Virus record (IMG/VR): IMGVR_UViG_3300005976_000005
Location: 36,448 to 100,447 of that record
Direction: 5' to 3' (one strand)
DNA length: 64,000 nucleotides
DNA from: a virus
A program made the position numbers and the translations under genes. The notes under the pieces were generated by a model. It was not told the DNA's origin. It ran no database searches and saw only the letters and a program-made list of their open reading frames with translations. Positions 31,423 to 63,745 of this stretch are shown piece after piece (within the stretch, counting starts at the first letter, position 1; each line of letters begins with the position of its first letter).

Positions 31423-31716
31423 TACTTCTCCTGAATGTAAAGCGAATTTTTTGTAACATACCTAACTATCTTAGGACTTGTCAATAATGCTGCCAAATTG
31501 AAGTATCCTTTACTAAACATTCCCCTAAGATATGTAGAACTAAACCAGCATCCATCAAGAGAGATAAACTTGTGTGGATTCTTTTTTATACCAATCTTGA
31601 TAGAACAATTATTTTCCTTTGCTGTTTGTACTATTAGCTATACATCCGTCAGCAATATCTTTATGGGATATTGTTGGTGGATTAAAAGAGCCTCCAAATA
31701 TTCCAACTTTTTTCAT
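31422..31716 (-). pseudogene. nadD: nadD/NMNAT-like adenylyltransferase remnant with internal deletion and frameshift
   Basis: MKKVGIFGGSFNPPTISH then, in another frame, SSTYLR...IVRYVTKNSLY; terminal TAA overlaps Nudix ATG. Confidence 0.75.
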
Positions 31717-31726
31717 CTCAATTTCC

Positions 31727-32038
31727 TTATGGAAGGACTATTCCACCCTTTGTTCTTTGTCCACCAGGCATTCCCGGTTTTCCACCTTGTAGCACAGAAA
31801 CAATCTGATTGAAGTTCTGATTGAGTACATTTGTATTGTGAGAGTTAATCTGTACCATCTGAGATATTGATGCGAAATCTTCGAAAAGAAAATCGACTGC
31901 TTTTTTCAAATCACCCTTTGTTACCGGCTCATCTGGATTTGAATTCAAGTCTTCGTAAAATTCTTCCCATTCTTTCTTTCTCTTCTCAGCGTACTCCTTC
32001 ATTTCTTCTTCAGTCATCTGATTTTTTTCTTCAGCCAT
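31727..32038 (-). CDS. hypothetical protein
   Basis: 103 aa ORF with GGAG SD. Confidence 0.7.
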   Translation of the reverse strand: MAEEKNQMTEEEMKEYAEKRKKEWEEFYEDLNSNPDEPVTKGDLKKAVDFLFEDFASISQMVQINSHNTNVLNQNFNQIVSVLQGGKPGMPGGQRTKGGIVLP

Positions 32039-32253
32039 TTTAACTCCTTATTTCATTATGAGGTTTCTTGGAAACAAACTACCAATCTTTATGAAAGCAA
32101 CGATTTTCTTGTGATATAGAAAGGCCAATCTCTCTTGAACTGGGAGCTTTCCATCCTGGTAATAACGGGGTGCGACCTGAGCTTTTCAATCTTATCTTTG
32201 ACAGTTAGATATTTCATGTAAATCTTCCTTTCAAAATTTTTCAATCTTGTTTA

Positions 32254-32826
32254 TCAAAGTTTGGCCACAGCAATAAGCGCACCAGCTTTCTTCATACGTG
32301 CAATAGACTTTTCTCTATTGTCAATATCGTTACAGAAAATACCGTTCTCCATATCCATCCATGTGATTGCGTTCTTGAAAATATAAACTCGAATACCTCT
32401 CTTGAGCAATCCCAAGACAGCAGCTTCCACACAGATGTTTCCAACAACGCCATATACCCAAGCTTCTGTCACGTTGTTTTCCTTCAACCATCTATCGACC
32501 TTCTTATTACCAAGGCTCGAATCAAACACATCATAAGTCTGCTTCTCGAAGATGACAGCATTCTTACACGAAGTTTCTCGAATACTTGCGGCACCTTCAG
32601 TGCCACTCATACAGTGCCACGGAAAAGGCCCTCCATTGGCTTTCATTTCTGGCTCAGTCCCGTCATGTGAGTCATTGAATTTGAGAATTGGAATTTTTTG
32701 GCTCTTAGCGAATTTTGTTATCTTCGCAAGAGTAGGACGGATTTCGTCGGCATCAGGGACGGGCAGTGCTCCACCCTCGAAAAAGTCACCAAGGGTGTCA
32801 ACGTCAACAAAGACCTTCATAAACAA
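32254..32826 (-). CDS. pncA: nicotinamidase / isochorismatase-family hydrolase
   Basis: VDVD..DF..GGALPV, DSH, PWHC..GT.GA, IFEK, GNICV. Confidence 0.85.
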   Translation of the reverse strand: MFMKVFVDVDTLGDFFEGGALPVPDADEIRPTLAKITKFAKSQKIPILKFNDSHDGTEPEMKANGGPFPWHCMSGTEGAASIRETSCKNAVIFEKQTYDVFDSSLGNKKVDRWLKENNVTEAWVYGVVGNICVEAAVLGLLKRGIRVYIFKNAITWMDMENGIFCNDIDNREKSIARMKKAGALIAVAKL

Positions 32827-32849
32827 CTCCTTTTTGATTGTTCAATTAT

Positions 32850-32878
32850 AATATAACATATTACCGGATGTGTGTTAA
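32850..32878 (-). promoter_or_regulatory. early promoter variant
   Basis: TTAACA 32878-32873, 17 nt, TATATT 32855-32850. Confidence 0.55.
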
Positions 32879-33132
32879 GATATCAATTCAAAATACTTTT
32901 TGATGACTTTTGTTATTGTAGCCCAAAAAGCGATGCTCTCAGTCCTCTTAGCAGATTTTATTCTATTATCCACAAACCTTATGGCACTTTCTAAGGACAT
33001 TGTTTCTCTCAATAATCCTTTTATTATTCTTTCAAGCTGATTAGCCAATGTCTCATCTGGGGTTTTACTTTGTAGTTCAGCAAGTTCTTTCATCATATCA
33101 AAGAACTCAAGCTTCTTCTCTTTATTCCTCAT
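32875..33132 (-). CDS. hypothetical protein
   Basis: 85 aa ORF. Confidence 0.6.
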   Translation of the reverse strand: MRNKEKKLEFFDMMKELAELQSKTPDETLANQLERIIKGLLRETMSLESAIRFVDNRIKSAKRTESIAFWATITKVIKKYFELIS

Positions 33133-33487
33133 AGTAAGGATTTACCTCTCTATCAAATTGGTTCTCTGTGTCGTAAGTCTTCCAATGAGAATTGTTCGCA
33201 TTACCCATACAATTGTTCGGATCAAACATACGACATACTCCAAACCTGTCATTGTATATCGTACAAACGCCACTATATTCGTTTATCTTATCATAATACT
33301 TACAATCATCATTTACAATAATAGCCCACTCGTTTTTCTCATTTACAGCCAAACTCATATTCTTATGAGCTATTATCCACTTACAGTAGTCAATAGTGTG
33401 TCCATCCATTATGTTTGGTTGTGGTATTGGTATTGCCACGAACTGACAGCATTTACCACACTTATTACATTTCTTCGTCAATCTCAT
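33122..33487 (-). CDS. YkgJ-like cysteine-cluster protein
   Basis: CNKCGKCC, CKYYD...CTIYNDR..VCRMF. Confidence 0.75.
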   Translation of the reverse strand: MRLTKKCNKCGKCCQFVAIPIPQPNIMDGHTIDYCKWIIAHKNMSLAVNEKNEWAIIVNDDCKYYDKINEYSGVCTIYNDRFGVCRMFDPNNCMGNANNSHWKTYDTENQFDREVNPYYEE

Positions 33488-33833
33488 CTACTCCTAATTC
33501 TGCCGCATATTTCTTTTGATTCTGTTTCTCTTCTTCAAAATGTGAATCACAGAGAGTTCTCTTCCAATCGAGAGAGCCTCTATATTTTCCAGGCTCTCCA
33601 CAAAATTCACAAACTGTATAAGATTTATCTTCACATTCTCTAATAACTTCATACATTTCTTCTGTTGGTTTATCTATCCAGATTCGCAGACCTCCAAACT
33701 TTTCTTTGATGTCAAGTATATTGACTTCAATATCCTCAGACAACGCAGCAATCTTTGTTATCATTTCTTCTATGATAGGATACCACCCTTCACCAACATG
33801 CCAATCGTTGTAGTTATATCTATATCTTACCAT
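33465..33833 (-). CDS. conserved phage hypothetical protein
   Basis: IKEKFGGLR, SYTVCEFCG..G, TLC..H. Confidence 0.7.
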   Translation of the reverse strand: MVRYRYNYNDWHVGEGWYPIIEEMITKIAALSEDIEVNILDIKEKFGGLRIWIDKPTEEMYEVIRECEDKSYTVCEFCGEPGKYRGSLDWKRTLCDSHFEEEKQNQKKYAAELGVDEIDEEM

Positions 33834-34038
33834 TTATTGATTCCTCTTTTTGTAACTTCATCTCTTGAGTCATGGCAGCTAACATTGTTGATAAGTCAAC
33901 CAAAGATGTATCCCAAACAGTAACTCCACCACCAACTTCATCTGAATAATAAATTCTTCCACCAACTTTATTATCATCCCAAAAAAGATAACACCCATTT
34001 GGTAAATCAATTCTATTATTCACCTTCTTCATCCTCAT
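33820..34038 (-). CDS. hypothetical protein
   Basis: 72 aa ORF. Confidence 0.6.
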   Translation of the reverse strand: MRMKKVNNRIDLPNGCYLFWDDNKVGGRIYYSDEVGGGVTVWDTSLVDLSTMLAAMTQEMKLQKEESINGKI

Positions 34039-34591
34039 CGTCTTTTAGATTCTCAATGTAATCCATCATTTCATCAACTGACTTGAATGACTTTCCTCTT
34101 TCTTCAGTCATATTCTCAATCTCTTTAACCTGGTTTTTCAAACCTTCAAGAGTCTCCTGAATTTCATCCTCATCATAACTAATAAATGTCATTTCCCAAA
34201 GACAACGAGCAACAATATCTGCTTTCATAAGTTGAATATTATTAGCAGTGTTCTCGTCAATTTCCATATTCAACCACTCACTCCAATTACTGAACTCAAG
34301 AGCACATTCTTCACTAGAGTTCGGAAAGAGTTCTGCGTCTTCAGTATCCTTATGAAGAGTTCCATTCCTACCGAAAACATTCCAATACCCTTCCTCAATC
34401 AAGTTCCCATCTGGTTCAACAAACTCAATACAGATTCTCATTTTAGTATCTTCATAAGATTCATAATTGATTAGTTTGAAGTAAGCATCTCTATAAGATT
34501 CTAATGAATCATCACTAATGTCAAAGTTTGACTTTAGAGAATTTGCTACACTATCCCAATCTGTATCTGAAATCAATTCCTTAAACTTCAT
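34016..34591 (-). CDS. hypothetical acidic protein
   Basis: 191 aa ORF. Confidence 0.7.
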   Translation of the reverse strand: MKFKELISDTDWDSVANSLKSNFDISDDSLESYRDAYFKLINYESYEDTKMRICIEFVEPDGNLIEEGYWNVFGRNGTLHKDTEDAELFPNSSEECALEFSNWSEWLNMEIDENTANNIQLMKADIVARCLWEMTFISYDEDEIQETLEGLKNQVKEIENMTEERGKSFKSVDEMMDYIENLKDDEDEEGE

Positions 34592-34883
34592 TGTTTTTGC
34601 TAAGCCTCTCGATTGATTTTATACCAAGTTCCATCTTCTGCCTTGCTGATGTGTTAGCAGAGTGGACTTTTATTACAGGTGGCTTGAATTCATCTAAAGC
34701 AACAGCCATTTCAATCCATCTAATTACATCATAACCAGTTCCTCTTTCGTCGTCACCAAGGTCATGATCCAAACTAATCTCTGTAACTTTGTTTGTCTTC
34801 AACAGTTCTATTGCTTCATCAGGCCAGTAAACTCTCTTCCAGCCTTCTGGTGTTTGTCTCTCATCATCTAAAAATACCTTTAT
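34581..34883 (-). CDS. cyclic-phosphate-processing receiver-domain protein, probable ATA start
   Basis: Frame open to IKVFLDDERQTPEGW; ISLDHDLG, GTGYDV, HSAN. Confidence 0.75.
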   Translation of the reverse strand: MKVFLDDERQTPEGWKRVYWPDEAIELLKTNKVTEISLDHDLGDDERGTGYDVIRWIEMAVALDEFKPPVIKVHSANTSARQKMELGIKSIERLSKNNEV

Positions 34884-35209
34884 TTGTTTATTCCTCCATT
34901 TATCTTTCCAGCAATCTCAAACTGGCTCCACAAATGTCCAGCAAATCTACTCTTCTCTTCACCATCAACATAAATGATTGTTGTAGGCATGGCACTGACG
35001 TTAAGAGCTTTCTTTACTTCTGGAGTGTTTGTTATCTGGAAATAAGAAATTTCTTTTCCATGGCTCTCAAGTATTCTAATAGCTTGCCTTGCGTAGTTCA
35101 TAAACTTTCTACAAGGAGCAGTGTTGAATGCTACAAACAGAACCGAAGCACCTTCTTTCTTTATATCACTTGGACTTGTTATTTCTAAAATACTCATATA
35201 TTTTCCCAA
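34880..35209 (-). CDS. thioredoxin-fold protein lacking CxxC
   Basis: APCRKF, VSAMPTTIIYVDGEE. Confidence 0.65.
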   Translation of the reverse strand: MGKYMSILEITSPSDIKKEGASVLFVAFNTAPCRKFMNYARQAIRILESHGKEISYFQITNTPEVKKALNVSAMPTTIIYVDGEEKSRFAGHLWSQFEIAGKINGGINK

Positions 35210-35338
35210 TCCTTTGACTGTTAGTCCGAAGATAATGATAAAATCAGTCAGTGGCCAGACGATTGATCCAGCAATTGCTGAAAGGATATCCTCATCTTAT
35301 TACTATAATCAAAGTAATAGTAAATGTTCTCGATCATA

Positions 35339-37800: not shown

Positions 37801-37899
37801 TCAAAAAAAGAACTTCATGTTAAACGTCTTTGCTGGATAGACATTAACATTAGTTCTTTTCTTTTTCTTTTCTATAAAGTAGTACTCTACAAAATTCAT
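37801..37899 (-). pseudogene. truncated gene with capsid-targeting-like N-terminus
   Basis: MNFVEYYFIE..., 32 codons, ends just before the IS end. Confidence 0.5.
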
Positions 37900-37901
37900 C
37901 A

Positions 37902-38144
37902 TTATGCCTTTGGAAGAGGGCACCACTCAGGAATTCTCCATTCAAAGTCCTTCACACAAATACGGTTTGGACTGTCTGGATGCTTACATCCTCTTGTTCC
38001 AAAATCCATAATGTCAACATAATATGGACAATCACGAACGCTATGTATTACCTTGACGTCACCGTCAACATTTACAAGTCTTTTGTCAGCTTCTTTTCTC
38101 ACATGCCCAAGTTTCTCTTGAAGATATTTTTTATACTCTTTCAT
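37902..38144 (-). CDS. hypothetical protein, CTS-like N-terminus
   Basis: MKEYKKYLQE. Confidence 0.65.
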   Translation of the reverse strand: MKEYKKYLQEKLGHVRKEADKRLVNVDGDVKVIHSVRDCPYYVDIMDFGTRGCKHPDSPNRICVKDFEWRIPEWCPLPKA

Positions 38145-39312
38145 TATGATTCGCCCCCCATTCGTCTATAGATAGAACAGCAACTAATCTACCATCAAAG
38201 TCTTTACGAATTTCGTAAATTTCACCATTATCCATTTCTACTGTATCTATAACTTCATCAGAAACATTAGACAAATCTTTTTCTACAGGTATTTCTCCAT
38301 GATCTAATGTATTAATTGAGTCATGATCTTCAGCAAGTCTTCTTGCCTTGAACTCAGAAAATGATTCTTCTTTCTTTACAGGAAGATTAAGTCTCTTCTT
38401 TATCTTATTCTTGTCTTCTTTTGATATGCCTTTTATACCATCTACCCAGCCGACAGCAGTCTTGGTAGAAGAACCCTTCATCTTATCCTTGAACTTCTTT
38501 ACATACATATCAACCTTATCTTCAGTTGACTCTGAGAGATTGAGTCCTTTCTTTTTTGCGTACTCCTTTGCCTTCTCCTTAGAGTCAAATTCCATGTCTA
38601 CCATCTTAGAACCATCTTTTGTATTCAATACATAAACTGCGGTTTCACCCTTACCTTTCTTGGCAATCTTTACTGAGTCGCCCTTCTTGCCCATATAACC
38701 TTCTGTCTTCAGATCATATGATCCTTCACCCTTATCAAGCTTATCATCTTTCTTGTATGTCATGTACTTCTTATTAGGCTTGATATCCTTTGGTTCTTCG
38801 TATGGTGTCTCAAATTCATCGGAGACCAATGCTTCTCTTTCTTCTGTGTCAACAGCTTCCTGAGGAACCATCTTTGTCCAAGTTATCTTACCAACAGGAT
38901 TACCAGGAATGGTTTCACCTGTTGCCTCAAACTTCTGGTCAGCAGTATCGTCAATAAGGTTGTAACCCTTGACCTTCTTTTTGACTGCTTCTATGATTGA
39001 CTTGATGGACTCAATCTCAGAACCATATGTGTAGAAGTTTAATGGTTGCTTCTCTTTTACCCATTGGTCAACTGCTTCAGCAAATGCCTTGTAAATCTTC
39101 GGATCGTTGTCACCAACACCAATCCTGTGGGATTTGATGTTTTCGAACTCAAGCATCCAACTAGTGTTGTCATCACAACCACCAGCTATTGATGTAGCAA
39201 GAAAAGCATAAGTCACTCCATTAACATCAAATCTTGTCTCATATTTTCCCATTAAACCATCATAGATTTGCTGAGCTTCAAGCTTTTCACTAAGTTGATT
39301 TAAAAATCCCAT
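38131..39312 (-). CDS. large charged hypothetical protein, candidate internal head protein
   Basis: MGFLNQLSE start; internal SFSEFKARRLAE. Confidence 0.75.
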   Translation of the reverse strand: MGFLNQLSEKLEAQQIYDGLMGKYETRFDVNGVTYAFLATSIAGGCDDNTSWMLEFENIKSHRIGVGDNDPKIYKAFAEAVDQWVKEKQPLNFYTYGSEIESIKSIIEAVKKKVKGYNLIDDTADQKFEATGETIPGNPVGKITWTKMVPQEAVDTEEREALVSDEFETPYEEPKDIKPNKKYMTYKKDDKLDKGEGSYDLKTEGYMGKKGDSVKIAKKGKGETAVYVLNTKDGSKMVDMEFDSKEKAKEYAKKKGLNLSESTEDKVDMYVKKFKDKMKGSSTKTAVGWVDGIKGISKEDKNKIKKRLNLPVKKEESFSEFKARRLAEDHDSINTLDHGEIPVEKDLSNVSDEVIDTVEMDNGEIYEIRKDFDGRLVAVLSIDEWGANHNERV

Positions 39313-39323
39313 GTTTTATCCCC

Positions 39324-39635
39324 TTATCTTCTTAGTGCGTCGGCACTAGTGTCTCTTACGTTTCTATCTGCAAACTCTACAACAGCACCATAAAAATTGT
39401 CAAGAGCAGCTTTGATAGGTTCATAATCATCGTCACCATGAGCATTTATGAAATCCACAAACGCTCCTTCTATATCTTGCAACATCTTAGCTGTGCTTCC
39501 ACCAAGACCACCATAGTTATCTGAAATCTTTTGAATAGCGGCCATGTAATCTCTACCTTCTATATTCTCGTTGACGTATGAAGAAACATCATCTTCGCCA
39601 AGAAGATTATCTAAATTGTATTTTAGATTTTTCAT
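39324..39635 (-). CDS. acidic hypothetical protein
   Basis: MKNLKYNLDNLLGE. Confidence 0.7.
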   Translation of the reverse strand: MKNLKYNLDNLLGEDDVSSYVNENIEGRDYMAAIQKISDNYGGLGGSTAKMLQDIEGAFVDFINAHGDDDYEPIKAALDNFYGAVVEFADRNVRDTSADALRR

Positions 39636-39641
39636 AATGTA

Positions 39642-39884
39642 TTACTCCACTATAGACTGAAGTGTTCTAACAACTTCTCTTGGGTCAACTCTCATTTCAC
39701 CAAGAATGTGAATCATGAATTTAGCAAAATCGTTAGAATTCAATTCACTAATCTGACTCTTAAAGCTATCTATATCGTTATCTACGAAAGTATTGTAAAT
39801 ACCAGCAAACCTTTCCGATAAATGTTCCTGAGATGTGTATTCAGTAACTTCATCTTCGCCTAAAAATCTTTCATAATTGCTCAT
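39642..39884 (-). CDS. hypothetical protein, CTS-like N-terminus
   Basis: MSNYERFLGE. Confidence 0.7.
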   Translation of the reverse strand: MSNYERFLGEDEVTEYTSQEHLSERFAGIYNTFVDNDIDSFKSQISELNSNDFAKFMIHILGEMRVDPREVVRTLQSIVE

Positions 39885-39903
39885 AATATTCTATCTCCCA
39901 TTA

Positions 39904-40203
39904 TTAAATTTTCCCGTCACCAATGTCCTTATAAACTTCGTCTGAAAGTTCATGCATCTTAGTCAATGCTTTCCTCAATGACATTTCAGCATCGAATGCT
40001 GCTTCAGCATTTTTACCAGGAGTGAGTCCGTCGATATAATCAGCGGCAGCCTGGACAGCTTCTATATGCTTGACAATATCATCTACACCAGCATCGATGT
40101 CCTTTTCGTCACCATCATCATTTACTTTTGCGGCAATCTTCTCAGCAGATGCCTTTTCTTCATCGTCAACCATCTTGTCAAGTTCGTACAAAATCTTTCC
40201 CAT
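39904..40203 (-). CDS. acidic hypothetical protein
   Basis: 99 aa ORF with GGAG SD. Confidence 0.7.
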   Translation of the reverse strand: MGKILYELDKMVDDEEKASAEKIAAKVNDDGDEKDIDAGVDDIVKHIEAVQAAADYIDGLTPGKNAEAAFDAEMSLRKALTKMHELSDEVYKDIGDGKI

Positions 40204-40214
40204 AGTTACGCTCC

Positions 40215-40544
40215 TTATCTTAAATCTATAAGTCTGTCTTCCAATGCTTTTACAACCACATTCTTTATTTCCTGAAAGTTGTAATTCCTTTCTCTATTCC
40301 AATCCTCAAGAGTTTTACTGACAATCGCAACGATACTTTCAACATCTCTTCTGTCCATTTCCAAGTTATTCTTTTCTATGAACTTGTCAACGGCATCATA
40401 ATCCATTTCTTCTTCAGCATCACCAGGAACTCTCTTGAGAGTTGGATACTTACGGATACCCGCAACATTTCCAACATTAGCATTGTCTGATGAATATGAT
40501 GGGTCTGCCATCATCTCTTCCAAAAATTTAGTAAATCTACTCAT
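40215..40544 (-). CDS. hypothetical protein, CTS-like N-terminus
   Basis: MSRFTKFLEE. Confidence 0.7.
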   Translation of the reverse strand: MSRFTKFLEEMMADPSYSSDNANVGNVAGIRKYPTLKRVPGDAEEEMDYDAVDKFIEKNNLEMDRRDVESIVAIVSKTLEDWNRERNYNFQEIKNVVVKALEDRLIDLR

Positions 40545-40611
40545 TGTTTCTTTCCTCAGGCTTTCATTATAAGCTCTTTGATCTTTTCCTTAGATAATTA
40601 TAATCTATGAG

Positions 40612-40619
40612 TATTTATA
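40612..40619 (-). promoter_or_regulatory. T4-type late promoter motif TATAAATA
   Basis: Exact match 68 nt upstream of the 40544 start. Confidence 0.55.
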
Positions 40620-40714
40620 GTTTAAGTAACTAAAAATTCAATACATTTACGTATTGTCTCATTCTCATTTTTATCAAAATCCTTTCCAAACAACTAATAA
40701 GGAAGTATTTTACA

Positions 40715-41046
40715 TCAAACTTTTACATTTTGAATAAATTGCTTTACTTTATTCAAGTCTTTTTCCAAATCTATATTATTGTTCAATACAAAATCCACAG
40801 CAGATTGTATCACATCTCCTAGCTTTGGTCCTGGTTTAATGTCACTTCTTAAAGACATTACCATTTTACCGTTAACAATTTTCCTAATACTTTCAGTGAC
40901 ACTCCACGGGGCAAGCCCCGTGGCTTCTGCTTAGTTTTCTAAGCATTCTTTTTCTTGCTTCAACGACAGTTCTATTGAACCATCTCCACATATTTCTCAT
41001 CATCTTGATAAAAACTTTCTTTTAAATAATATTCATCGAATATCAT
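40715..41046 (-). pseudogene. disrupted gene: CTS-like N-terminus and CCA-enzyme/HD-like C-terminus, split by an IS remnant
   Basis: MIFDEYYLKES... (ATGA overlap with upstream gene) and ...IVNGK..MSLRSDIKPGPKLGDVI..AVDFVL. Confidence 0.55.
40896..40990 (-). mobile_element. IS200/IS605 right end with tnpB 3' remnant
   Basis: CGD...SLKQEK* coding remnant, hairpin CCACGGGG-CAAG-CCCCGTGG (40904-40923), end GGAGTGTCAC. Confidence 0.7.
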
Positions 41047-42116
41047 TTGTATACTCCATTACTAAATGATAAGTCTCTTGTCGCATAGAAATAGTTTCCA
41101 TCAAAAGCTAATCCGTCTGCTTTCACAACAGCAATGGTTGTCACAGGATTACTTCCAGTCATTTGTGCGTATCTATATGCTGTTTCTCTATCAGGAGCAA
41201 AGTATGTGTTTGTTTTGAATTTTTCCGATCTAAGTATCTTATTTAGATTTGACTTTGATGTTCCGTGGTGAAGTGTTAGATAAAGTTCACCGTCTATGTA
41301 ATTCTTGGGAACATTAAACTTTTCTACACCCTTCAAAACCGAATCCATAAATGCGTCGTTGGATTCGTGGAACTTTGCCGTAAGAGAAGGTTCTCTCAGT
41401 TGCCCGGCAAAGTACTGGTCTATCTTTCTTATTATGTTTGTTGGATTGATTGGTTGGTCAAACTCTTCATAATATCTTCCACCCTTACCATTTAGCTCCA
41501 ACAACACCTGGTCAACACTGTTTATATATCTTCTCAAAGCATTTCTTTGTTGTTGTGTTACCGGTGATTCAATATCAATGAGACCAACATTAGCATCAAT
41601 TCTAATAGGACCAAGTTTCTGAAAAGCAATCATTCCATCAGAGCCACCTTGAGCAGCCGGGTGATCTATATTCTCTAATGCTCTTCCAATTTCTCTATGA
41701 TCCATTTCTCTACCACGAGCGTATGTATTACCGAACTTTCTGCCTGATAAATCGAGAAGCTTACCGTCTCTCATTATATATCCTGCGAACTTTAGATTGT
41801 TTGTCAAACCGAATCTTCTTCTCACCTCATTGAGAACTTGTTCATCGGTGGATACTTCCTTCTTCTCAACAGCTCTTTTTATAGCTTCATAATGATGCGG
41901 TAATGCTTCCTTATTGATTGGTTTATTTCTGTCAAAAAAGTTCCTTTTCAAAATTGCCTTGACATCATCAGGACCTCTCCAATCAAATCCCTTACGCTTC
42001 ATGTAAGTGTTTATCTTACTGAAAACTGTTTTAGGAACGTCATCCAAACTGTTGATTATTATTTTGTCATCAAGGACCTCAAAGTCCTCTCTTATATAGA
42101 AAGCTTCGAATCTCAT
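41043..42116 (-). CDS. multidomain protein with C-terminal ADP-ribosyltransferase-like domain, CTS-like N-terminus
   Basis: MRFEAFYIRE; LHHGTS...ILRS..F...TYFAPDRETAYRYA. Confidence 0.6.
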   Translation of the reverse strand: MRFEAFYIREDFEVLDDKIIINSLDDVPKTVFSKINTYMKRKGFDWRGPDDVKAILKRNFFDRNKPINKEALPHHYEAIKRAVEKKEVSTDEQVLNEVRRRFGLTNNLKFAGYIMRDGKLLDLSGRKFGNTYARGREMDHREIGRALENIDHPAAQGGSDGMIAFQKLGPIRIDANVGLIDIESPVTQQQRNALRRYINSVDQVLLELNGKGGRYYEEFDQPINPTNIIRKIDQYFAGQLREPSLTAKFHESNDAFMDSVLKGVEKFNVPKNYIDGELYLTLHHGTSKSNLNKILRSEKFKTNTYFAPDRETAYRYAQMTGSNPVTTIAVVKADGLAFDGNYFYATRDLSFSNGVYK

Positions 42117-42125
42117 TGTATCCTC

Positions 42126-42458
42126 TTACATAGCATGTGTTGGTACTTCTTCAAATTCTACTTCTTCTGGATTTTCACCCATCTCTCTGAGTTTTCTAAT
42201 AGCGAACTTCTTTGGCATTTCAGTAGGTGTATATCCCCAACGAACTTCTCTTTCTTCCATAGGTTTATGACTGGTATCAAAAACGAACTCAAGATATCTA
42301 CCTTGTGGATTAGGAACATCTCTTGAAACCTTTACAACAATATCACCACTATCCTGGATTTCCTTTCTCCATTTGAAAGTTCTACCTATTTCCATTTCAT
42401 CGTCTTTCCAATCTCGATCTCTTCCAAGAGCCTCTTTAAGATATTCATTAAAAGCCAT
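42126..42458 (-). CDS. hypothetical protein, CTS-like N-terminus
   Basis: MAFNEYLKE. Confidence 0.7.
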   Translation of the reverse strand: MAFNEYLKEALGRDRDWKDDEMEIGRTFKWRKEIQDSGDIVVKVSRDVPNPQGRYLEFVFDTSHKPMEEREVRWGYTPTEMPKKFAIRKLREMGENPEEVEFEEVPTHAM

Positions 42459-42871
42459 TATTCTTCTCCTTCATCTTCCATTGCTTCTTCTTTAGTATCG
42501 TGAACAGTTCCTTCCGGATGTTGTGGTGGTGAGTATATTGCGTAGAGCTTTATACCTTCTTCTCCAGCAATAATGTTATGTTTCACACCACCTGGAACTA
42601 TAAAAGCCGAACCGTCTTTTATGTCATACTTCTTACCGTCCATAACCAGTTTACCAGAACCACCATCAATTCTGAAGAACTGATCTGGATCATGAATCTC
42701 TTCTCCAATATCTTCGTTGGGTTTTAGTGACATTAGTACTAATTGCATGTTGTCACCAGTAAATAATGACTTTCTGAATTTGTCATTATCAACAGTATCT
42801 TTCTCGATATCTGTAACAAATCCAACTTCTTGACTCTCTTCTGCTTCTCTTACAAAATCTCTAAAACTCAT
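42458..42871 (-). CDS. cupin-domain protein, CTS-like N-terminus
   Basis: MSFRDFVRE; IGEEIH..DQFFRI..G.G, VPGG.KHNI, YSPPQHP. Confidence 0.88.
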   Translation of the reverse strand: MSFRDFVREAEESQEVGFVTDIEKDTVDNDKFRKSLFTGDNMQLVLMSLKPNEDIGEEIHDPDQFFRIDGGSGKLVMDGKKYDIKDGSAFIVPGGVKHNIIAGEEGIKLYAIYSPPQHPEGTVHDTKEEAMEDEGEE

Positions 42872-43497
42872 TTTGATTCTCTCACTTTACCTGGTATGAA
42901 AACCTCAAGATGATCTCTTGACATTGTTATTGTTTCGCTTCTTCCTCTCTTGTATGGATCGAAGACTTTAGATTTGTAAGCTTCCTTGTTCCAACTAGAG
43001 GGAGTTCTCAAATACTTTCTATCCATAGCTATAACTTTTTTCAGAAGTTTGGGTAAATCCTTTGTGTGGACTTTTACCCAAGAACCCTTATATTCTTTAC
43101 CAACTCCCATCTTCTTTGCTGGTTCAACAAAGTGAGTCCAGATATCTCCGTGGTGCTGAAACTTCTTTATTGGAGGAAATCTCATTGTTTCCTCTCCACT
43201 TTTGTCAACACCCTTGACCATTATATCCTTATTCCAAGCAGCAAGAAACGGCTCCACATAAGGCCAGATGAAAGCATAAATCCCCTTCTTCTCTGGTGGT
43301 GTATGGAACCCTGCTACTGGATTTTCAGAATCCACGAATTTTCTTTCCTTCTTTTTGTCCCTCTTAGGGTTCATGTGTCCCCATCGAGTAAACATAATCT
43401 TTGGATCAGATTTCTTATCTCTTGCCTTTACTTTGACAACAGAATCATCTTCATCGCCTATATAGTAATGTGCCTCAAATTTATTTTCCGTCTTCAT
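42868..43497 (-). CDS. hypothetical protein
   Basis: Probable start MKTENKFEAHYYIGDE. Confidence 0.65.
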   Translation of the reverse strand: MKTENKFEAHYYIGDEDDSVVKVKARDKKSDPKIMFTRWGHMNPKRDKKKERKFVDSENPVAGFHTPPEKKGIYAFIWPYVEPFLAAWNKDIMVKGVDKSGEETMRFPPIKKFQHHGDIWTHFVEPAKKMGVGKEYKGSWVKVHTKDLPKLLKKVIAMDRKYLRTPSSWNKEAYKSKVFDPYKRGRSETITMSRDHLEVFIPGKVRESK

Positions 43498-44070
43498 CCG
43501 AATTTCCTTCTGGGTCTGAAAGCTGGAAACTAATTTGATCTTTGTACTTAGCAAAGTCTACAAGATAAACGTCATTTTCAGAAAACTTTATTAGCTCAAA
43601 TTTCTTTTCATCTTCTATATCTTTTGGAAACTTCTCCCATTTCTTATCTTCATAATTCCAAAATCTCTTTATTGCGTCGAGCGGAACTTGGTGAGCCGCT
43701 GCGACTTTATGTCCTGCCTTTTCAATTTCGATTGCTTTAGCAGAATCATCTGTTGCTACAACAAGTTTACCTTCATCAAATTCGTCAAAGGATTTTGGTC
43801 TGTCAGCAGAGTAATAGAAAGTTAAAACTCTCTTCTCTTCTGTTTGTGGCTTAGGGACATCGGTCTTGACATGTGGGTCCTTTTGCTTCCTTTTAATCTT
43901 TACTTCAAGAGGAGCATACTTCCACTGCTCATCTGAAGGAAGACTCTTTACCTTGACCTTATTTCTTTGACCAGTAGAAGTTCTATGCCATATTTTTTTT
44001 TTTGCCGCCAATCATCATTCTGACTGCCGGTATCATATTCCGTTATCAAATAAAAAAAAGAAAAATTCAT
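43481..44070 (-). CDS. hypothetical protein frameshifted in an A11 tract (true start 44070)
   Basis: AAGGAGG SD before MNFSFFYLITE; one extra A joins it to the 43481-44011 frame. Confidence 0.6.
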
Positions 44071-44134
44071 AGCAATAGCGCCTCCTTAAGAACAAAAACA
44101 TTATATAAATTCATAATATGTCTCCTAAAACTTT

Positions 44135-44174
44135 TATAAATACAAATTCTGCTGTCTCCCTTATTATATTTATA
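44135..44174. promoter_or_regulatory. two opposed TATAAATA late-promoter motifs
   Basis: Plus strand 44135-44142, minus strand 44167-44174. Confidence 0.5.
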
Positions 44175-44199
44175 TTTTTTATTAAAAAAGGAATTCAAA

Positions 44200-44343
44200 A
44201 TGTCTAAAAAATTAACCAATCAAGAAGTCATTCAAAGAATTCAGAAAACTTTTCCAAATCACAATTATGACTATTCTCAAATTAACTGGCAAGGATTTGA
44301 TAAACCCTTAAAAGTTCTTAATCAGAATCTCTTCTCTTTTTGA
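44200..44343 (+). pseudogene. homing-endonuclease-like N-terminal remnant (DUF723-type)
   Basis: MSKKLTNQEVIQRIQKTFPNHNYDYSQINW; AAGGA SD. Confidence 0.65.
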
Positions 44344-45114
44344 TGAATGTTTCTTTAGTCTATTTCCATTCTGACAGTTTATACCATACTTTACAAAATT
44401 GAACTTGTCAGAAGAGTACATCTTTCTCAAACCATCAAATTCATAATAGCTTATTATAACTTTACCCTTAACTGTATTTATACATTCTGATAATCTATTG
44501 TGAATATCCTTTTTACCAATAGTGTAATATCGCTCACAGTCGAAGTATGGCGGGTCTATATAAAACAACATTCCATCTCTATCATGCTTCCTAATACAAT
44601 CTTCAAAGTCAAGGTTTTCAAAATCAGTAATCTTAGACAAACTATTCAAAATTTTTGGGTTCTTAAGCTTATCTATCAATTGCTCATATTTTGAACGGTA
44701 CTTACTTCTATCAAGAATTGTTATCTTGCTTTTATTACTCAAAGTGTTGCCAGCAAATATTTGAGTCTGTATATAAGCAAATTTAGCGGCAATATCAAAA
44801 TCAGGCTCATCAATTCTACTCTCTATGCCAATGTTAAAAATTTCATCTCTGAATCTAATAAACAATTCTGGGTCCTGTGGTCTGTGCTTTTCAAGCTCTT
44901 TCTTCATTCTGTGAGGATTTATAGAGCAACATTTGAACAAATTGACCATTTGCGAATTCACATCGTTATAAATGATGCTGCTTTTAGTCATTTCAGACTG
45001 AATATAAATCCAAAAAGCACCTGAAAAAGGTTCACAATATCCGTCAAAGTGATTTGGAAACTCTGGTAAAATATACTTAGCGTGAAACTTCTTTCCACCA
45101 ATATACGAAATCAT
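44308..45114 (-). CDS. DNA N6-adenine methyltransferase (D12/Dam class)
   Basis: YIGGKK, YCEPFSGA, NDVN, FYIDPPY; start refined to MISY. Confidence 0.92.
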   Translation of the reverse strand: MISYIGGKKFHAKYILPEFPNHFDGYCEPFSGAFWIYIQSEMTKSSIIYNDVNSQMVNLFKCCSINPHRMKKELEKHRPQDPELFIRFRDEIFNIGIESRIDEPDFDIAAKFAYIQTQIFAGNTLSNKSKITILDRSKYRSKYEQLIDKLKNPKILNSLSKITDFENLDFEDCIRKHDRDGMLFYIDPPYFDCERYYTIGKKDIHNRLSECINTVKGKVIISYYEFDGLRKMYSSDKFNFVKYGINCQNGNRLKKHSSKREEILIKNF

Positions 45115-45159
45115 ACAGACTCCTCGACAAAAATAGACATACCTTACCAATATGTCTAT

Positions 45160-45188
45160 AATATAATAAATTACCAAGTATATGTCAA
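45160..45188 (-). promoter_or_regulatory. early promoter of the methyltransferase
   Basis: TTGACA 45188-45183, 17 nt, TATATT 45165-45160. Confidence 0.7.
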
Positions 45189-45191
45189 ATA

Positions 45192-46457
45192 TTATTCTAC
45201 GAAGAAAGGTTTAAAATCCATCCAAAGATTTAGTTTACCTTCTTCCTTAATTGGTATCTTGAGTCTTAGAAACTCAACATCATTGTTTCCATAGAATACA
45301 AGCGAGAAAGAATTTGTTTTCTCTGAAATTTTTTCCATTCTCATATAGAACTTGTCATTGAAATTATCTACCAGCTTTTTGAACCCTTTACTTGTTTTTG
45401 TTGAAATAACCCTTGTATTGTTAGATTGAGTTACAGCTAAATAAATTTCTTCACTACCAAGACCTATAGAATTAACAAAGCTTTCGTTTATTCTATCACC
45501 ATTATCTTTATATACTTCGTTAAAAATATCTATAACGAAGTCTCTAATTATCTGGTATCTGGATTTACCACCTTCTTCCATTGGCTGGTTCATAAATTCG
45601 GTTGCTAATGTGCTATAATCAGGAACTTTTTTCTTTTTAAGACTTCTTTTCAGTTTACTAAACTCCGAAGCTAACTTAGATATTTCTGGAATTCTTCTAA
45701 TAACATCTTTTGCTTCTGTAGACAATTCATCATCCTCTATCTTATCCAACAAATTTTTCACAAACTTAGCTCCAGTACCTTCAACATTAGGAAACATAAC
45801 TTTCTTTATGAAGCTAATAAATGTAGAATTTACGAGGTTGATACTAAAACCACTGTATGCTTTCAACGAAGCAAAAATCTCCTGAACAACCTTCTGCTCT
45901 GACATCTTCGTAACAATCAAGTCAGCAGTTGTCTCAAACTTCCTAGACTCACCAGCAAGCTCAATATCAAAAAGACAAAGAGCACTATCTTCCGATGATG
46001 AAATTTCTGTAAAGATTTTCTCAGCCAATGCCTCACCTTGTTGCTCTGATGTTCTTATCTTTCCACTTAGATTTTTCTGTTCTTTCTCCCCCCACTTAAC
46101 ATTCTCAATTTTTTCTGTTCTATACCTATTCATTTCATTGTTAAGTTCTTCAAGTAGATTTTTACTCTTGATTTTAAACCCACTATCCAACAAGTTCTTA
46201 CATAGATTATACGCAGTTACTCTTTCCACATAATAACCTATTCTCGACTTGAGGTCCGACTTTCTGTCTTCACCATTTGATTCTTTCATGTTATTGGATA
46301 CTCCTAAACTAATTCTTTTGGTTTGACCAAAATTCAACATAGAAAATAGCTTCTTTATACTATTAACAATTTTTCTAAATGAACTCTTGATCCATTGAGT
46401 TATGTTAGGTATAGTGATGTTCTCATGAAAGTAAAAATCATCGAACCTCATTTTCAT
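45192..46457 (-). CDS. putative PD-(D/E)XK restriction-endonuclease-like protein, CTS-like N-terminus
   Basis: MRFDDFYFHE; IGYYVE helix, TADLIV...ASLK. Confidence 0.5.
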   Translation of the reverse strand: MKMRFDDFYFHENITIPNITQWIKSSFRKIVNSIKKLFSMLNFGQTKRISLGVSNNMKESNGEDRKSDLKSRIGYYVERVTAYNLCKNLLDSGFKIKSKNLLEELNNEMNRYRTEKIENVKWGEKEQKNLSGKIRTSEQQGEALAEKIFTEISSSEDSALCLFDIELAGESRKFETTADLIVTKMSEQKVVQEIFASLKAYSGFSINLVNSTFISFIKKVMFPNVEGTGAKFVKNLLDKIEDDELSTEAKDVIRRIPEISKLASEFSKLKRSLKKKKVPDYSTLATEFMNQPMEEGGKSRYQIIRDFVIDIFNEVYKDNGDRINESFVNSIGLGSEEIYLAVTQSNNTRVISTKTSKGFKKLVDNFNDKFYMRMEKISEKTNSFSLVFYGNNDVEFLRLKIPIKEEGKLNLWMDFKPFFVE

Positions 46458-47986
46458 ATCTCCTTTTTGAGTCTTCTAAAAACTCCAGCATGTTGTTTAG
46501 CAACTGCCTTTGAAACTTTTGGCGTTTCTCCCTTCTTAGCCATCTCTATTGACTTGTTCAAAGCATTTAGGAGAGAAGACCACTTTTTAGCAGCAGGAGC
46601 CTGTCCCTGCGCTCTTGCTCTCTCAAGTTCTGCTTCAAACTTTCCAGTCAAAGCATCCACACTCTTTACCAAACCTTCAGTACTATCCTGTTGAGTAATC
46701 TCTATATTCGCGTCACCATTCTGAATTCTTCCAACTTCAACATACTTCTCAATTGCGTTTATGAGATTTTCTGATTGACCCTTTGATTTGAATATATCAG
46801 CAAATAAGTCTATCCTATCCTGACGAATAGGAACGAGTCTCTGATACTGCTTCTTCAAGTTATCAGGAACAAGATTCATTGCCATCTGTCCCTTCTCCTT
46901 TGGATTTCCTTCACCCGCCATTATCTCAGCAAACTCTGGCATCTCTATAACAGTTGTAAGAATTTTATTCAACTGAACTTGATATTCTGTTCCAGAACCG
47001 TGAATTGGAAGAAAGATATGCTTCTTCGTCTTTTCCTTACAATATCTACATTTTCTACAATCACCCAAACAATGAACTCCCTTGTTCACAGTAACTCCAT
47101 TGAATTCATGTAGCTCGTTTCTTTCTACCAAATCCATGACCTCGTTGAACTCATTGAGTTCAAGAGGAACAAAAGCATTGTCCAACATGAATCCAGAACC
47201 ATTGACACAAATGTTTGGTCCCAAGTCTCCAATGTTGAGGTCTGTTCTGTGGGTGTATGTGTAGAGCTTCAAGTCAGAACCCATACTTATAAGTTCCTTT
47301 CCAACTTGTCTGAGCTTTTCAACATCATCAACACCAGCCATCTGCGCTTTCTTCTCTTCTGGAACTCTTGCCAAAAGCTCTGGGTCAGATGGAAGATTTC
47401 TAAATTCACCAGCTTCATTGATTCTGATGTACTTTATTCTTGGCATTACCTCTGTAATATTGACAAGACCCTGAGCAATTCCTCTTGGTGTCAAACAAGC
47501 CCATTGTTCTTCGTGTCTGATATTTTTCTCCATTGATCCTTTCCACTGCTTCTCAAATCTCAAAGCATAACACTGACCATTAGGACCAAGTTTACAAGTA
47601 CCGAGAATAGCGGACATACAGTTACCGGCAGTTGACATATTGAGAAGAACAGTATCACCACCAATCTTCGCATTACCAGCGGCAACTTCAAAATCTCTGA
47701 CTTCACCAGTCTCCGGGTCTGTTACCTTTGTTCTTGTTCTGTTCTCTTTCTTACTCTTTTTTTCTTGCTCGTTCAAACTGTCATAATGCTCATATGCTTC
47801 TTTCAGTGACTTGAATGTCTTCCCATCTCTGGAAAGTCTTATTACATCATGTTCTACTAATTGAGGAAGATACTTCAAAGGAATGCCAATTTCCATTTCA
47901 CCCCTCTCATTGATCGAACAGAGGTCCAAATCAATTGGCATCATGAAAGTATTATCTTCAAAATAGTGGTCAATGAATCTGTCCAT
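46454..47986 (-). CDS. GP88-like cysteine-cluster protein, CTS-like N-terminus
   Basis: NAKIG, NC...C...CYA, IRINEAGEF, YTYT, CLGDCRKCRYC. Confidence 0.6.
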   Translation of the reverse strand: MDRFIDHYFEDNTFMMPIDLDLCSINERGEMEIGIPLKYLPQLVEHDVIRLSRDGKTFKSLKEAYEHYDSLNEQEKKSKKENRTRTKVTDPETGEVRDFEVAAGNAKIGGDTVLLNMSTAGNCMSAILGTCKLGPNGQCYALRFEKQWKGSMEKNIRHEEQWACLTPRGIAQGLVNITEVMPRIKYIRINEAGEFRNLPSDPELLARVPEEKKAQMAGVDDVEKLRQVGKELISMGSDLKLYTYTHRTDLNIGDLGPNICVNGSGFMLDNAFVPLELNEFNEVMDLVERNELHEFNGVTVNKGVHCLGDCRKCRYCKEKTKKHIFLPIHGSGTEYQVQLNKILTTVIEMPEFAEIMAGEGNPKEKGQMAMNLVPDNLKKQYQRLVPIRQDRIDLFADIFKSKGQSENLINAIEKYVEVGRIQNGDANIEITQQDSTEGLVKSVDALTGKFEAELERARAQGQAPAAKKWSSLLNALNKSIEMAKKGETPKVSKAVAKQHAGVFRRLKKEI

Positions 47987-48001
47987 ATTATTCTCTCCTG
48001 T

Positions 48002-48161
48002 TTATCTGTTTAGAACTTCTTGTATTTCGTCGTATGCTTGTGACTGGTCACTTACAGAACCAGTAATCTCTCTGCGAATTTCGTCAGGACTTACTACTGT
48101 ATATTTTGTTTTTGTTATTTATCCAAGTTGACTTACCTGAACCAGGTATTTAAATAAGCAT
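48002..48161 (-). pseudogene. polynucleotide-kinase-like (AAA_33) remnant
   Basis: MLI*IPGSGKSTWI, then frameshift to VSPDEIRREITG.VSDQS. Confidence 0.7.
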
Positions 48162-48170
48162 TATGAAATC

Positions 48171-48701
48171 TTAAAATCCCAATTGCTTTAACTGTTTAAT
48201 TGTATCATCTGCGTTTTGATGGTGTATACCAATACCATCCCCAAGATTTATCCAGTCATTGATTTTCTTATCATAATCATCTATGAGTATACTTTCTGTA
48301 TCTGCGTGCTCATATTTATCCTTAGAAAAGATATAGTGCACATCTTCTCCAAGTTCTCTCTCAATCCAGATTTTTTTACCTTCTTTACAGAACTTGCTTC
48401 TTGTGGGAGTTGTTAATATCGTAGGATTATATTTTTTGATGTAGTTCCAAAGTTTCTTACCGTCAGGTGTCCAGGGCATCTCACTCCAGAATTCAAGCTT
48501 ACCGTTTTCTGCTATGACTTTCCAAAGCTCTTCTCTTCCATACTTATCTTCGAACTTATGCCCTTCCAATCCCTTGGTTACTTCACTTCCAAGATTTTCA
48601 AATGCTTTTTCCCACCAACAGATTACACCATCCATATCACAAAAGATTTTCAATTGACTTTCCTCATTCTCATACAAATAAAGCATTTCAAGAATTCCCA
48701 T
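48171..48701 (-). CDS. HAD-family 5'(3')-deoxyribonucleotidase-like protein
   Basis: IFCDMDGVI, ILT.P, GKKIW, ILIDD. Confidence 0.85.
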   Translation of the reverse strand: MGILEMLYLYENEESQLKIFCDMDGVICWWEKAFENLGSEVTKGLEGHKFEDKYGREELWKVIAENGKLEFWSEMPWTPDGKKLWNYIKKYNPTILTTPTRSKFCKEGKKIWIERELGEDVHYIFSKDKYEHADTESILIDDYDKKINDWINLGDGIGIHHQNADDTIKQLKQLGF

Positions 48702-48952
48702 CAATTCGCTCCTTGGTTTCTATACATTCTCATTTTATTGGTTATTTCTTCTTCTGTATTAGCAAGGAAAGTATCATTTGTGTCAGGCATAGTGAATGTG
48801 TATGCTATCTACCACCATCCATTGAAATTTAGTCCATACTTATTGGCGAGAGATTGACCTCTTCTCATTAGTTTTTTATCCTCTTTGGATAAATTAGTAT
48901 CCTTTAACTTGATCGTTTTCTCTATCATATAAAATTCTCTAAATTGTAACAT
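48701..48952 (-). pseudogene. 83-codon gene with one in-frame TAG (48809-48811), CTS-like N-terminus
   Basis: MLQFREFYMIE; frame continues past TAG to a TGA that overlaps the next ATG. Confidence 0.5.
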
Positions 48953-48968
48953 TTTTTCTCCCAAAATG

Positions 48969-49333
48969 TGGTGGAGCTGACGGGGACTTGAACCCCGTGT
49001 CCTGAATACGTCGCTGAAAACCTCGTTCACATGGTTAGTCTCTTTCTAATCAGTCATCATAATCGTAAAAAAGACAAAGACAATTATGATGACCCAACAA
49101 AGTCAATTCGGTCCCCTTCTCTATGTTGGCTTCGGTTGTCCTATCCTTCTGTCTTTTCCCTAATCCATCTTAGAAGGAGTCAGATGTTTCGGGCGCTACT
49201 TTAATTAAGCAGCTTGTGCGTAAGCGTAATCTTCTGCGCTTGTCTTTCGGTCAGCTTTTTTTCGTGGCCAACTGACCAACCACGCCATGCAGCTTTTCAA
49301 CTAACACACCCAGTCGAAAACCATTACAGCCCC
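48969..49333 (-). ncRNA. ssrA: tmRNA, tag (A)AEDYAYAQAA
   Basis: 5' GGGGCTGTAATGGTTTTCGAC, 3' T-arm and CAGCTCCACCA with G3.U pair, PK1 pseudoknot, tag frame 49237-49205. Confidence 0.95.
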
Positions 49334-49339
49334 ATATTT

Positions 49340-49726
49340 TTAGTCTTCGGATGATGCCTTGAAAGTTGGTCTTCCCAAAGGTTCTCCACCGATAGCACTT
49401 GGTTCGTATTCGTTCTGTCTTATTTGCTCAGCTCTTACGTACTTCCAATCCTTTCCTTTGAGACCAATCTGGTCTTCAACCTTGGAAAGTAATCCCTCTA
49501 CACCCTCTGATGGAATGCCTTCAAACTTACCAATCTTGGTAATTGTACAAGCATCTGAGTAATACTTTGACCATTCTACGACACCCTTCTCTGCTCTACA
49601 AAGATTAAGGAATTTCTTTGGTTCGCCAGCATTATGTCTTTCTACATTGATAATTGCTACTTCCTGAGAAAGTCTCTCCAATTGTTGCTTGGATAGCATT
49701 TCGCTAAGCACTTCTACAAAAGCCAT
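49340..49726 (-). CDS. hypothetical protein, CTS-like N-terminus
   Basis: MAFVEVLSE; GGAG SD and own promoter. Confidence 0.7.
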   Translation of the reverse strand: MAFVEVLSEMLSKQQLERLSQEVAIINVERHNAGEPKKFLNLCRAEKGVVEWSKYYSDACTITKIGKFEGIPSEGVEGLLSKVEDQIGLKGKDWKYVRAEQIRQNEYEPSAIGGEPLGRPTFKASSED

Positions 49727-49800
49727 TTTAGGTTTCTCCTGTTAGATACGATTTATTACAATATAACATAATTATTTATAGTTGTCAAATGTTTTTCTAA
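49710..49800. repeat. 91-bp direct repeat copy 1 (promoter + RBS + MAFVEV start)
   Basis: Identical to 50982-51072; contains TTGACA-17-TATATT with TATAAATA inside the spacer. Confidence 0.95.
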
Positions 49801-63731: not shown

Positions 63732-63745
63732 ATAATACACGCGCT

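Follow-up and report, generated by a model that had tools for sequence, protein, structure and literature searches.

Why would about 20 genes encoding unrelated proteins share an N-terminus of about ten residues? This question is raised by a 64-kb stretch of viral DNA (hereafter the window), which corresponds to positions 36,448-100,447 of one IMG/VR viral contig of 149,281 bp with 35% G+C. An earlier note on the window had proposed that this N-terminus resembles the capsid-targeting sequence (CTS) of phage T4 and that it marks proteins that are packaged and injected, and this interpretation is supported as far as sequence analysis reaches. We give a probability of about 0.7 to the reading that the shared N-terminus, called here the tag, is a capsid-targeting propeptide cleaved by a gp21-type protease, i.e., the version of the T4 CTS used by this phage clade. 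Positions with the prefix W, or with no prefix, are window coordinates, and those of the contig or of other loci are named as such.

The 18 N-terminal strings quoted in the earlier note were all found where it had placed them, at the 5' ends of minus-strand open reading frames (ORFs), each with an in-frame stop 1-31 codons upstream and usually with a GGAG-type ribosome-binding site. Described as a regular expression ([FYWLIM]xx[FYWLMHQV][FYW]?[LIVFMY]xE, starting at residue 2-5), the tag matched 22 of the 204 plausible genes of the 149-kb contig, against 2.5 ± 1.5 matches (maximum of 9 in 2000) when residues 2-14 were shuffled within each protein and 2.4 N-terminal matches expected from the internal rate of the motif. 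A motif-free test concurred: 22 of 169 N-terminal 10-mers had a partner with a BLOSUM62 score of at least 25, compared with 0-4 internal 10-mers, and the genes picked out were the same. The genome-wide N-terminal enrichment, which had been put forward as a check, is thus observed. The distribution of the matches is also uneven, with none among the 124 genes at contig positions 1-74.1 kb (a zone that takes in window positions 1-37.6 kb), 20 among the 44 genes at 74.1-107.5 kb, and 2 among the 30 genes of the structural block at 109-149 kb. The near-absence from early genes that had been noticed in the window therefore extends to the whole first half of the contig. The tag was not found on sheath, tube, baseplate, terminase, portal, or major capsid proteins (MCP), and it is therefore not a general feature of late genes. 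The bearers are unrelated, as had been claimed, since the bodies of 28 tagged proteins gave no mutual blastp match at an E value below 0.01. The first 33 nt of the tagged genes had a median identity of 42%, which places the conservation at the level of the peptide.

The source contig is linear, has a CheckV completeness of ~58%, and carries nearly all its genes on the minus strand. Its 109-149 kb part encodes homologs of gp15, gp16, gp17, the gp18 sheath, and the gp19 tube, arranged as in T4, and baseplate and tail genes come next; the gp17 homolog is interrupted by homing endonucleases, and the sheath is 25-34% identical to those of cultured T4-like phages. Megablast of the region against 50,697 phage records found no relatives at the DNA level. 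At about 235-260 kb, this uncultivated T4-like jumbo phage is a distant relative of T4, and two complete relatives with terminal repeats were identified, G001 (264 kb) and G005 (254 kb). Two further contigs extend the picture: G003 (18.7 kb) has 98.8% nucleotide identity to the source contig across 8.2 kb, and G006 (85.4 kb) is 99.9% identical to G003 across 11 kb. Apart from this link through G003, G006 and the source contig have only endonuclease repeats in common. The source contig terminates within a repeated homing-endonuclease gene, which is the probable reason why the assembly broke there and why G003 joins nonadjacent segments. Judging from these overlaps, G006 in effect complements the source contig within one phage species, in which we count ~26 tagged proteins (22 in the source contig and 4 in G006). 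Several paralogous homing-endonuclease genes also interrupt the gene for the large terminase and lie on either side of the head genes (L005, contig 134.5-149.3 kb, and L108).

The alignment of these 26 tags on their final Glu (P1) revealed an anatomy close to that of the T4 capsid targeting sequence, reportedly described by Mullaney and Black in 1996. All 26 tags have Glu at P1; P3 is Leu in 16, Phe in 5, and Ile in 2, P4 is Tyr in 18 and Phe in 4 (aromatic in 22 of 26), and P7/P8 are Phe or Tyr. Leu or Ile at P3 gives 18 tags (about 70%) a strict L/I-X-E ending. Sixteen tags have 10 residues, 7 have 9, and 3 have 11, with the consensus M-x-F-x-E-Y-(Y)-L-x-E. Exact-consensus stretches number 30 in IMG/VR, roughly half of them being chance matches or very short ORFs. 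The N-termini in the T4 record are MKTYQEFIAE for IPII and IPIII, MAKINELLRE for gp24, MELITELFDE for Alt, MLKEQLIAE for gp22, and ...LLIE for gp21. The first 10 residues of T4 IPIII suffice for incorporation into the head, residues 4 and 7 of the CTS serving for targeting and residues 8 and 10 for processing, and gp21 cleaves after L/I-X-E (PMC9026906). The conserved residues of the tags fall on the same four positions (4, 7, 8, and 10), and the 26-tag logo matches the anatomy of the CTS and of the gp21 site. No homologs of T4 Alt, IPI-III, gp67, and gp68 were detectable by tblastn; the likeness lies therefore in the tag and not in the cargo.

A tag of this type would require a T4-type prohead protease. 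Searches of the source contig for Peptidase_S77 and Gp23 gave no match, because the contig is ~58% complete and ends inside the repeated homing-endonuclease gene. G003 and G006 jointly encode homologs of T4 gp20, gp21 (33% identical), gp22, gp23, and gp55, together with homologs of gp43, gp44, gp46, and gp47. The gp55 homolog is present in the contigs of the phage species and in the complete relatives, so that both gp21 and gp55, which the earlier note had singled out as proteins to look for, were found in the same species and beyond it. The complete relatives also encode gp20, gp22, and gp23 of T4 type, and protease, scaffold, and capsid protein recur in G001, G002, G005, and G008. The phage species carries T4-type head and late-transcription machinery, and the tag family occurs together with Peptidase_S77 in the complete relatives G001 and G005 and in the fragments G002, G006, and G008. 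The predicted maturation site of the MCP, aligned with FLTE|AEIGG of T4 gp23, is VISE|ASNHG here and VLGE|ASQGS in G001, which is the same context as that of the tags ending in ...FLGE and ...LLGE. The gp21-like protease itself, encoded at G003 14355-15008, starts with MKLLTEFVSF... and has IKE at residue 18. The prediction of a complex between this protease and an 80-aa tagged protein had a score of 0.02, which gives no answer and is evidence neither way. In G001, tagged genes, including a cupin ortholog, are interleaved with those for the MCP, the neck, gp15, gp16, and gp17. Just upstream of the portal gene, a 58-aa protein (L108:17700-17876, minus strand) ends in ...SFKEFIDNYLSEE*, a tag-like C-terminus; T4 Alt is likewise processed at its C-terminus.

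By analogy with T4, the aromatic residues of the tag would attach the protein to the scaffolding core while the prohead assembles, the gp21-type protease would cut the Leu/Ile-x-Glu end and free the mature protein within the head, and this protein would exit with the DNA at infection. The tagged proteins are, on the same analogy, probably loaded into the head for delivery with the DNA, and scaffold-core binding and any role of these proteins in takeover or anti-defence are inferred. A broader proposal, to which we give somewhat less than even odds, is that a clade of environmental T4-like jumbo phages uses the CTS as a general address, that the injected proteome, with roughly 25-30 members in each phage, may be read from the sequence, that cassettes are swapped at tag/promoter sequences, and that there is a link to polyvalent proteins. 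Among the members would be a restriction-endonuclease-like nuclease, whose partner would be an adenine methyltransferase that is early and untagged, an enzyme of the ADP-ribosyltransferase (ART) fold, a kinase resembling zeta toxins, in some strains also a tRNA nucleotidyltransferase, and numerous small acidic proteins, which are possible DNA mimics.

Most of the cargo had no Pfam or PHROGs match. Among the types listed in the earlier note, the cupin, HAD nucleotidase, P-loop kinase, ART fold, and GP88-like assignments were retained, and the nuclease-like one is kept only as a lead. All genes described here at 37801-49726 and 62774-63940 are on the minus strand. The ART fold is found in a 357-aa two-domain protein (41043-42116; tag MRFEAFYIRE), whose C-terminal 100 aa (41046-41345) gave an AF2 model with a pLDDT of 96.6. 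Its best 19 matches in the PDB were Tpt1/KptA, followed by Vis, PARP13/14, HopU1, and TreTu, with probabilities of about 1.0, TMq of about 0.5, and E values from 7e-3 to 7e-2. H27, G28, T29, and Y85 are invariant or nearly so across 40 sequences, which fits H-G-[ST] and the aromatic residue of the second motif; the alignment summary showed no conspicuous conserved Glu. The model supports, by fold, the assignment of this domain to the ADP-ribosyltransferase superfamily. T4 Alt is a packaged ADP-ribosyltransferase. The relatives of the domain touch Pfam ART-PolyVal (PF18760), with a match under Pfam's cutoff, and the domain also occurs inside giant proteins of 1,600-2,900 aa beside Zeta-toxin, GNAT, and PolyA_pol domains. 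The putative restriction endonuclease is a 419-aa protein (45192-46451; MRFDDFYFHE) whose assignment relies on atlas matches to type II enzymes (HaeIII/HinP1I/MspI families; TM of 0.55) and on a conserved D-x17-S-x-K pattern. It is a lead only, since its own AF2 model (pLDDT of 53) was too poor for structure search. It adjoins an untagged D12-class N6-adenine DNA methyltransferase with its own TTGACA-type promoter (44308-45114).

The remaining assigned bearers of the window are a 137-aa cupin (42458-42871; MSFRDFVRE), a 510-aa GP88-like protein (46454-47986; MDRFIDHYFE; PF17338 by atlas), for which no relatives were found when it was used as query for related loci, a 176-aa HAD 5'-3' deoxyribonucleotidase (48171-48701; MGILEMLYLYE), and a 185-aa P-loop kinase (Zeta_toxin/AAA_33; 62774-63331) with a longer tag, MSITSFYNYYSINE, replaced by MALMSFESYYSHTE in the G001 ortholog. 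Outside the window, a 125-aa tagged protein belongs to DUF5661. Of 25 mature cargo proteins, 12 are acidic and 9 basic. A 669-aa tagged protein without family match (MLEFTKYLKE, net charge of about -91) is encoded at L003:6754-8763, minus strand (contig 104,754-106,763), and is kept with its tag in G001, directly downstream of the tail-fiber block.

The distribution of the tag is modular. Within tagged proteins, the family profiles begin at residue 14 for HAD, at about residue 28 for the kinase, and at residue 40 for the tRNA nucleotidyltransferase; the start of the HAD profile at residue 14 makes the tag an N-terminal extension. The ART-like domain has 61 relatives in this comparison; those nearest to it are all tagged, and several distant stand-alone copies start directly at the domain. 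Homologs of the 419-aa protein at 43-44% identity retain the tag, and those of the 419-aa and 357-aa proteins together retain a tag at 42-57% identity. The relative G001 has at least 14 tags, and its orthologs retain the tag pattern also in cases of a different tag sequence: the HAD orthologs, with bodies 63% identical, start with MGILEMLYLYE in this phage (G000 in these comparisons) and with MKFEEYYLKE in G001, and the G001 cupin, 65% identical, starts with MSFRDFLKE and is located between the MCP and gp15. Strains differ by whole cassettes. The MAFVEVLSE gene has its promoter and gene start repeated exactly (W49731-49775 and W51003-51047), and the two copies bracket a 260-aa gene cassette that is missing from strain contig L149. 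In strain L148, a DUF723 gene is inserted beside the methyltransferase, and in strain L147, a 24-aa stub ORF (MIFDEYYLKE) is followed by a ParB-like 81-aa gene and then by a tagged 479-aa tRNA nucleotidyltransferase (MRFNEHYFTE), a gene that the source contig does not have. The tagged locus behaves as a strain-variable cassette region.

The serious alternative to injected effectors accepts that the tag addresses the prohead and is cleaved, and holds that most bearers are assembly or core parts (scaffold helpers, DNA-condensing or inner-body-like proteins) that are degraded, expelled, or retained, in which case there would be no injected toolkit. T4 gp22, gp67, gp68, and gp21, which are core proteins and are not injected, have similar N-termini, and several of the G001 tagged genes lie within the head and neck module. 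Moreover, many bearers are tiny (59-110 aa) and have no fold assignment, and the strongly acidic 669-aa bearer resembles core or filler more than an enzyme. We nevertheless consider this alternative unlikely, since the cupin, HAD nucleotidase, kinase, ART fold, restriction-endonuclease-like protein, and tRNA nucleotidyltransferase are enzymes without a role in assembly, and since strain variation by whole cassettes suits accessory functions better than core assembly parts.

Much less credible is a link with peptide modification, where the common N-terminus would be the recognition leader of a modifying enzyme of the radical-SAM type, unconnected with the capsid. A weak radical-SAM gene does lie at W52885-54021, between the two tagged clusters, but it belongs to a cluster of glycosyltransferases and an oxidoreductase, and G001, which has the tags, has no homolog of it at an E value below 1e-5, which disfavors such a leader. 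The coincidence of the tag determinants with the T4 CTS and gp21 site, and the presence of the protease with the tag in every complete genome examined, also argue against it. Equally improbable is a by-product of A/T-rich codon bias (F, Y, K, N, E, and I have A/T-rich codons), of gene starts spread by recombination or cassette exchange (a 91-bp promoter/gene-start repeat shows that they can be copied, and T4 too keeps duplicated alt gene starts), or of paralogy, because shuffling within the N-termini abolishes the signal, tag DNA is so divergent and bodies so unrelated that composition bias, DNA-level duplication, and paralogy are ruled out as sources, highly expressed late structural genes have no tag, and orthologs at 43-65% identity retain the tag pattern.

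The earlier note had also described sequence motifs at the head of the tagged runs. We found TATAAATA, which resembles the T4 late promoter, in or near the upstream gap of three of them (all sites on the minus strand): at 40612-40619 in the gap upstream of the run from 40544 to 37801, at 44167-44174 upstream of a split tagged gene, and at 49773-49780 inside the TTGACA-type promoter upstream of the MAFVEVLSE gene. It is also present twice ahead of the sheath operon and is enriched on the coding strand of the contig (28 occurrences vs. about 12.6 expected). The presence of the motif at these runs stands, and its association with individual tagged genes is weak; late expression of the tagged genes is, from the motif, the gp55 homolog, and the interleaving with structural genes in G001, only weakly suggested.

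Several observations weigh against a CTS-like tag on an injected set. The regular expression was defined post hoc, and 8 of the 26 tags have Phe, Val, Met, or Tyr at P3, which breaks the strict L/I rule of T4. Four tags head ORFs of only 24, 32, 40, and 47 aa. The head genes are not on the source contig, the link being made through overlapping contigs of other samples (98.8-99.9% identity), and of the four tagged genes of G006, two lie at 7-23 kb on the minus strand, at a distance from its block of head genes. Per gene, TATAAATA precedes 4 of 22 tagged and 10 of 182 untagged genes (P = 0.049), and this association was not significant in G001 or G006. There is no obvious reason why a cupin or a deoxyribonucleotidase would be injected. 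Finally, packaging, cleavage, and injection are argued from the T4 analogy for a phage that is uncultivated.

The other tagged genes of the main cluster are mostly small. The run behind the TATAAATA copy at 40612-40619 starts with a 109-aa protein (40215-40544; MSRFTKFLEE) and continues with a 99-aa protein with the loose tag MGKILYELDKMVDDE (39904-40203), whose G001 ortholog starts with MAILNELDK, an 80-aa acidic protein (39642-39884; MSNYERFLGE) with the spacing of T4 MKTYQEFIAE, and a 103-aa protein with a loose, longer tag ending in ...NLLGE (39324-39635). Next are a 393-aa protein (38131-39312; MGFLNQLSE), starting with MGFISQLSE in G001 and without a usable match in the atlas search, an 80-aa protein without family match (37902-38144; MKEYKKYLQE), and a 32-aa ORF (37801-37899; MNFVEYYFIE) made only of the tag followed by a Lys/poly-A run, possibly a stub or broken gene. 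Around the ART-fold gene are a 24-aa stub ORF that is kept in other strains (40972-41046; MIFDEYYLKE) and a 110-aa protein with a 9-residue form of the tag (42126-42458; MAFNEYLKE), and beyond the cupin lies a 209-aa protein with the loose tag MKTENKFEAHYYIGDE (42868-43497).

The split gene at 43481-44070 consists of a tag ORF (43948-44070; MNFSFFYLITE, with a strong AAGGAGG site) and a 176-aa body ORF (43481-44011), which are out of frame at a run of 11 A (W43993-44003). A second assembly shows 10 A at this place, and the tag and the body would be fused if the run had 9 or 12 A; it could be a sequencing artifact, phase variation, or slippage. Further along, a 47-aa tagged ORF (48809-48952; MLQFREFYMIE) is placed just downstream of a gene for a full-length phage tmRNA (W48969-49333, minus strand; Rfam RF00023, 131.8 bits; ARAGORN tag peptide AEDYAYAQAA*), which sits between two tagged genes. 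The second of these encodes the 128-aa MAFVEVLSE protein (49340-49726), with a promoter and gene start duplicated from 51003 on. The second cluster of the window adds to the kinase a 137-aa protein (63318-63731; MKFTEYYFRE) and a 64-aa protein (63746-63940; MSFNKYLKE).

Other features of the phage were noted in passing. A low-G+C cluster (27-34%) at W51069-62021 separates the two tagged clusters and contains glycosyltransferases, a GFO/IDH/MocA oxidoreductase, and the weak radical-SAM gene; the cluster may act in the modification of DNA or of surface glycans. A CRISPR array with four cas-like genes (172, 309, 384, and about 775 aa) is present on the phage at W5300-11844. In the early region, about ten small plus-strand ORFs start with MI[RKE]W[KR]... 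(L002:13223-17303, contig 31,223-35,303), a second and distinct common N-terminus.

How does this family compare with known systems? In T4, the CTS of IPI, IPII, IPIII, and Alt and the N-terminal propeptides of gp24, gp22, and gp21 are all removed by the prohead protease gp21 (PMC9026906, PMC3012670). The internal proteins of T-even phages are diverse, with the CTS alone conserved (PMC3012670), and the CTS may be a general route by which T4-like phages load proteins (PMC9026906); IPI and IPIII are injected anti-defence proteins (PMC9391042). The present phage resembles T4 in having an N-terminal tag of ~10 residues on unrelated proteins, in which positions 4 and 7 are hydrophobic or aromatic, position 8 is aliphatic, and position 10 is Glu, in encoding homologs of gp21, gp22, gp23, and gp55, and in having one cargo of the ART fold, as Alt, and a strain-variable locus. 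It differs in the consensus (M-x-F-x-E-Y-Y-L-x-E instead of MKTYQEFIAE), in the coexistence of 9-, 10-, and 11-residue forms, in the number of bearers (about 26 in one phage compared with a handful in T4), and in predicted enzyme cargo that is not known among T4 internal proteins; the family described here is known from sequence alone.

The giant phages phiKZ, 201phi2-1, and SPN3US, with their processed ejection and inner-body proteins, also have a gp21-related protease that cuts many head-internal proteins after Glu, and they eject packaged proteins in large numbers (PMC5694885, PMC9026906) into the host. Their sites are S/A-X-E, their propeptides mostly exceed 100 residues, and they have no short common tag (PMC5694885, PMC9026906). 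The rest of the phiKZ-type virion is not T4-like. Polyvalent proteins and ART-PolyVal (PF18760) resemble this system in that the C-terminal domain of the 357-aa protein is related to them or adjacent to them in homologs, and they fuse Zeta-toxin kinase and PolyA_pol types that are seen here as separate tagged genes. In contrast with the single polypeptide of polyvalent proteins, the activities are here in separate genes, each with its own tag. The Dar antirestriction proteins of phage P1 are reportedly packaged in the head and injected, in a manner dependent on N-terminal targeting and head morphogenesis, but they belong to another phage lineage with another head protease and have no short common L/I-x-E tag. 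Literature searches yielded no account of a tag family expanded in this way. The present family is new in its scale (about 26 bearers), in having a consensus of its own and enzymes as cargo, in varying between strains by cassettes, and in belonging to a jumbo clade that is distant and uncultivated.

Should the tag function as it does in T4, proteins delivered with the DNA would be predictable from the sequence in uncultivated phages. Such proteins are the first of the phage to meet host defences, and the tagged set is about ten times that of T4, with enzyme types not known as T4 internal proteins. It would provide a concrete list of candidate anti-defence and takeover effectors, as well as a second natural tag with which T4-type capsids could be loaded with foreign proteins. 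The cassette variation among strains suggests that the locus is a front line of the conflict between phage and host. Were the injected proteome to exist as proposed, it would link two strategies of delivery, one using separate tagged genes and the other one giant fused protein.

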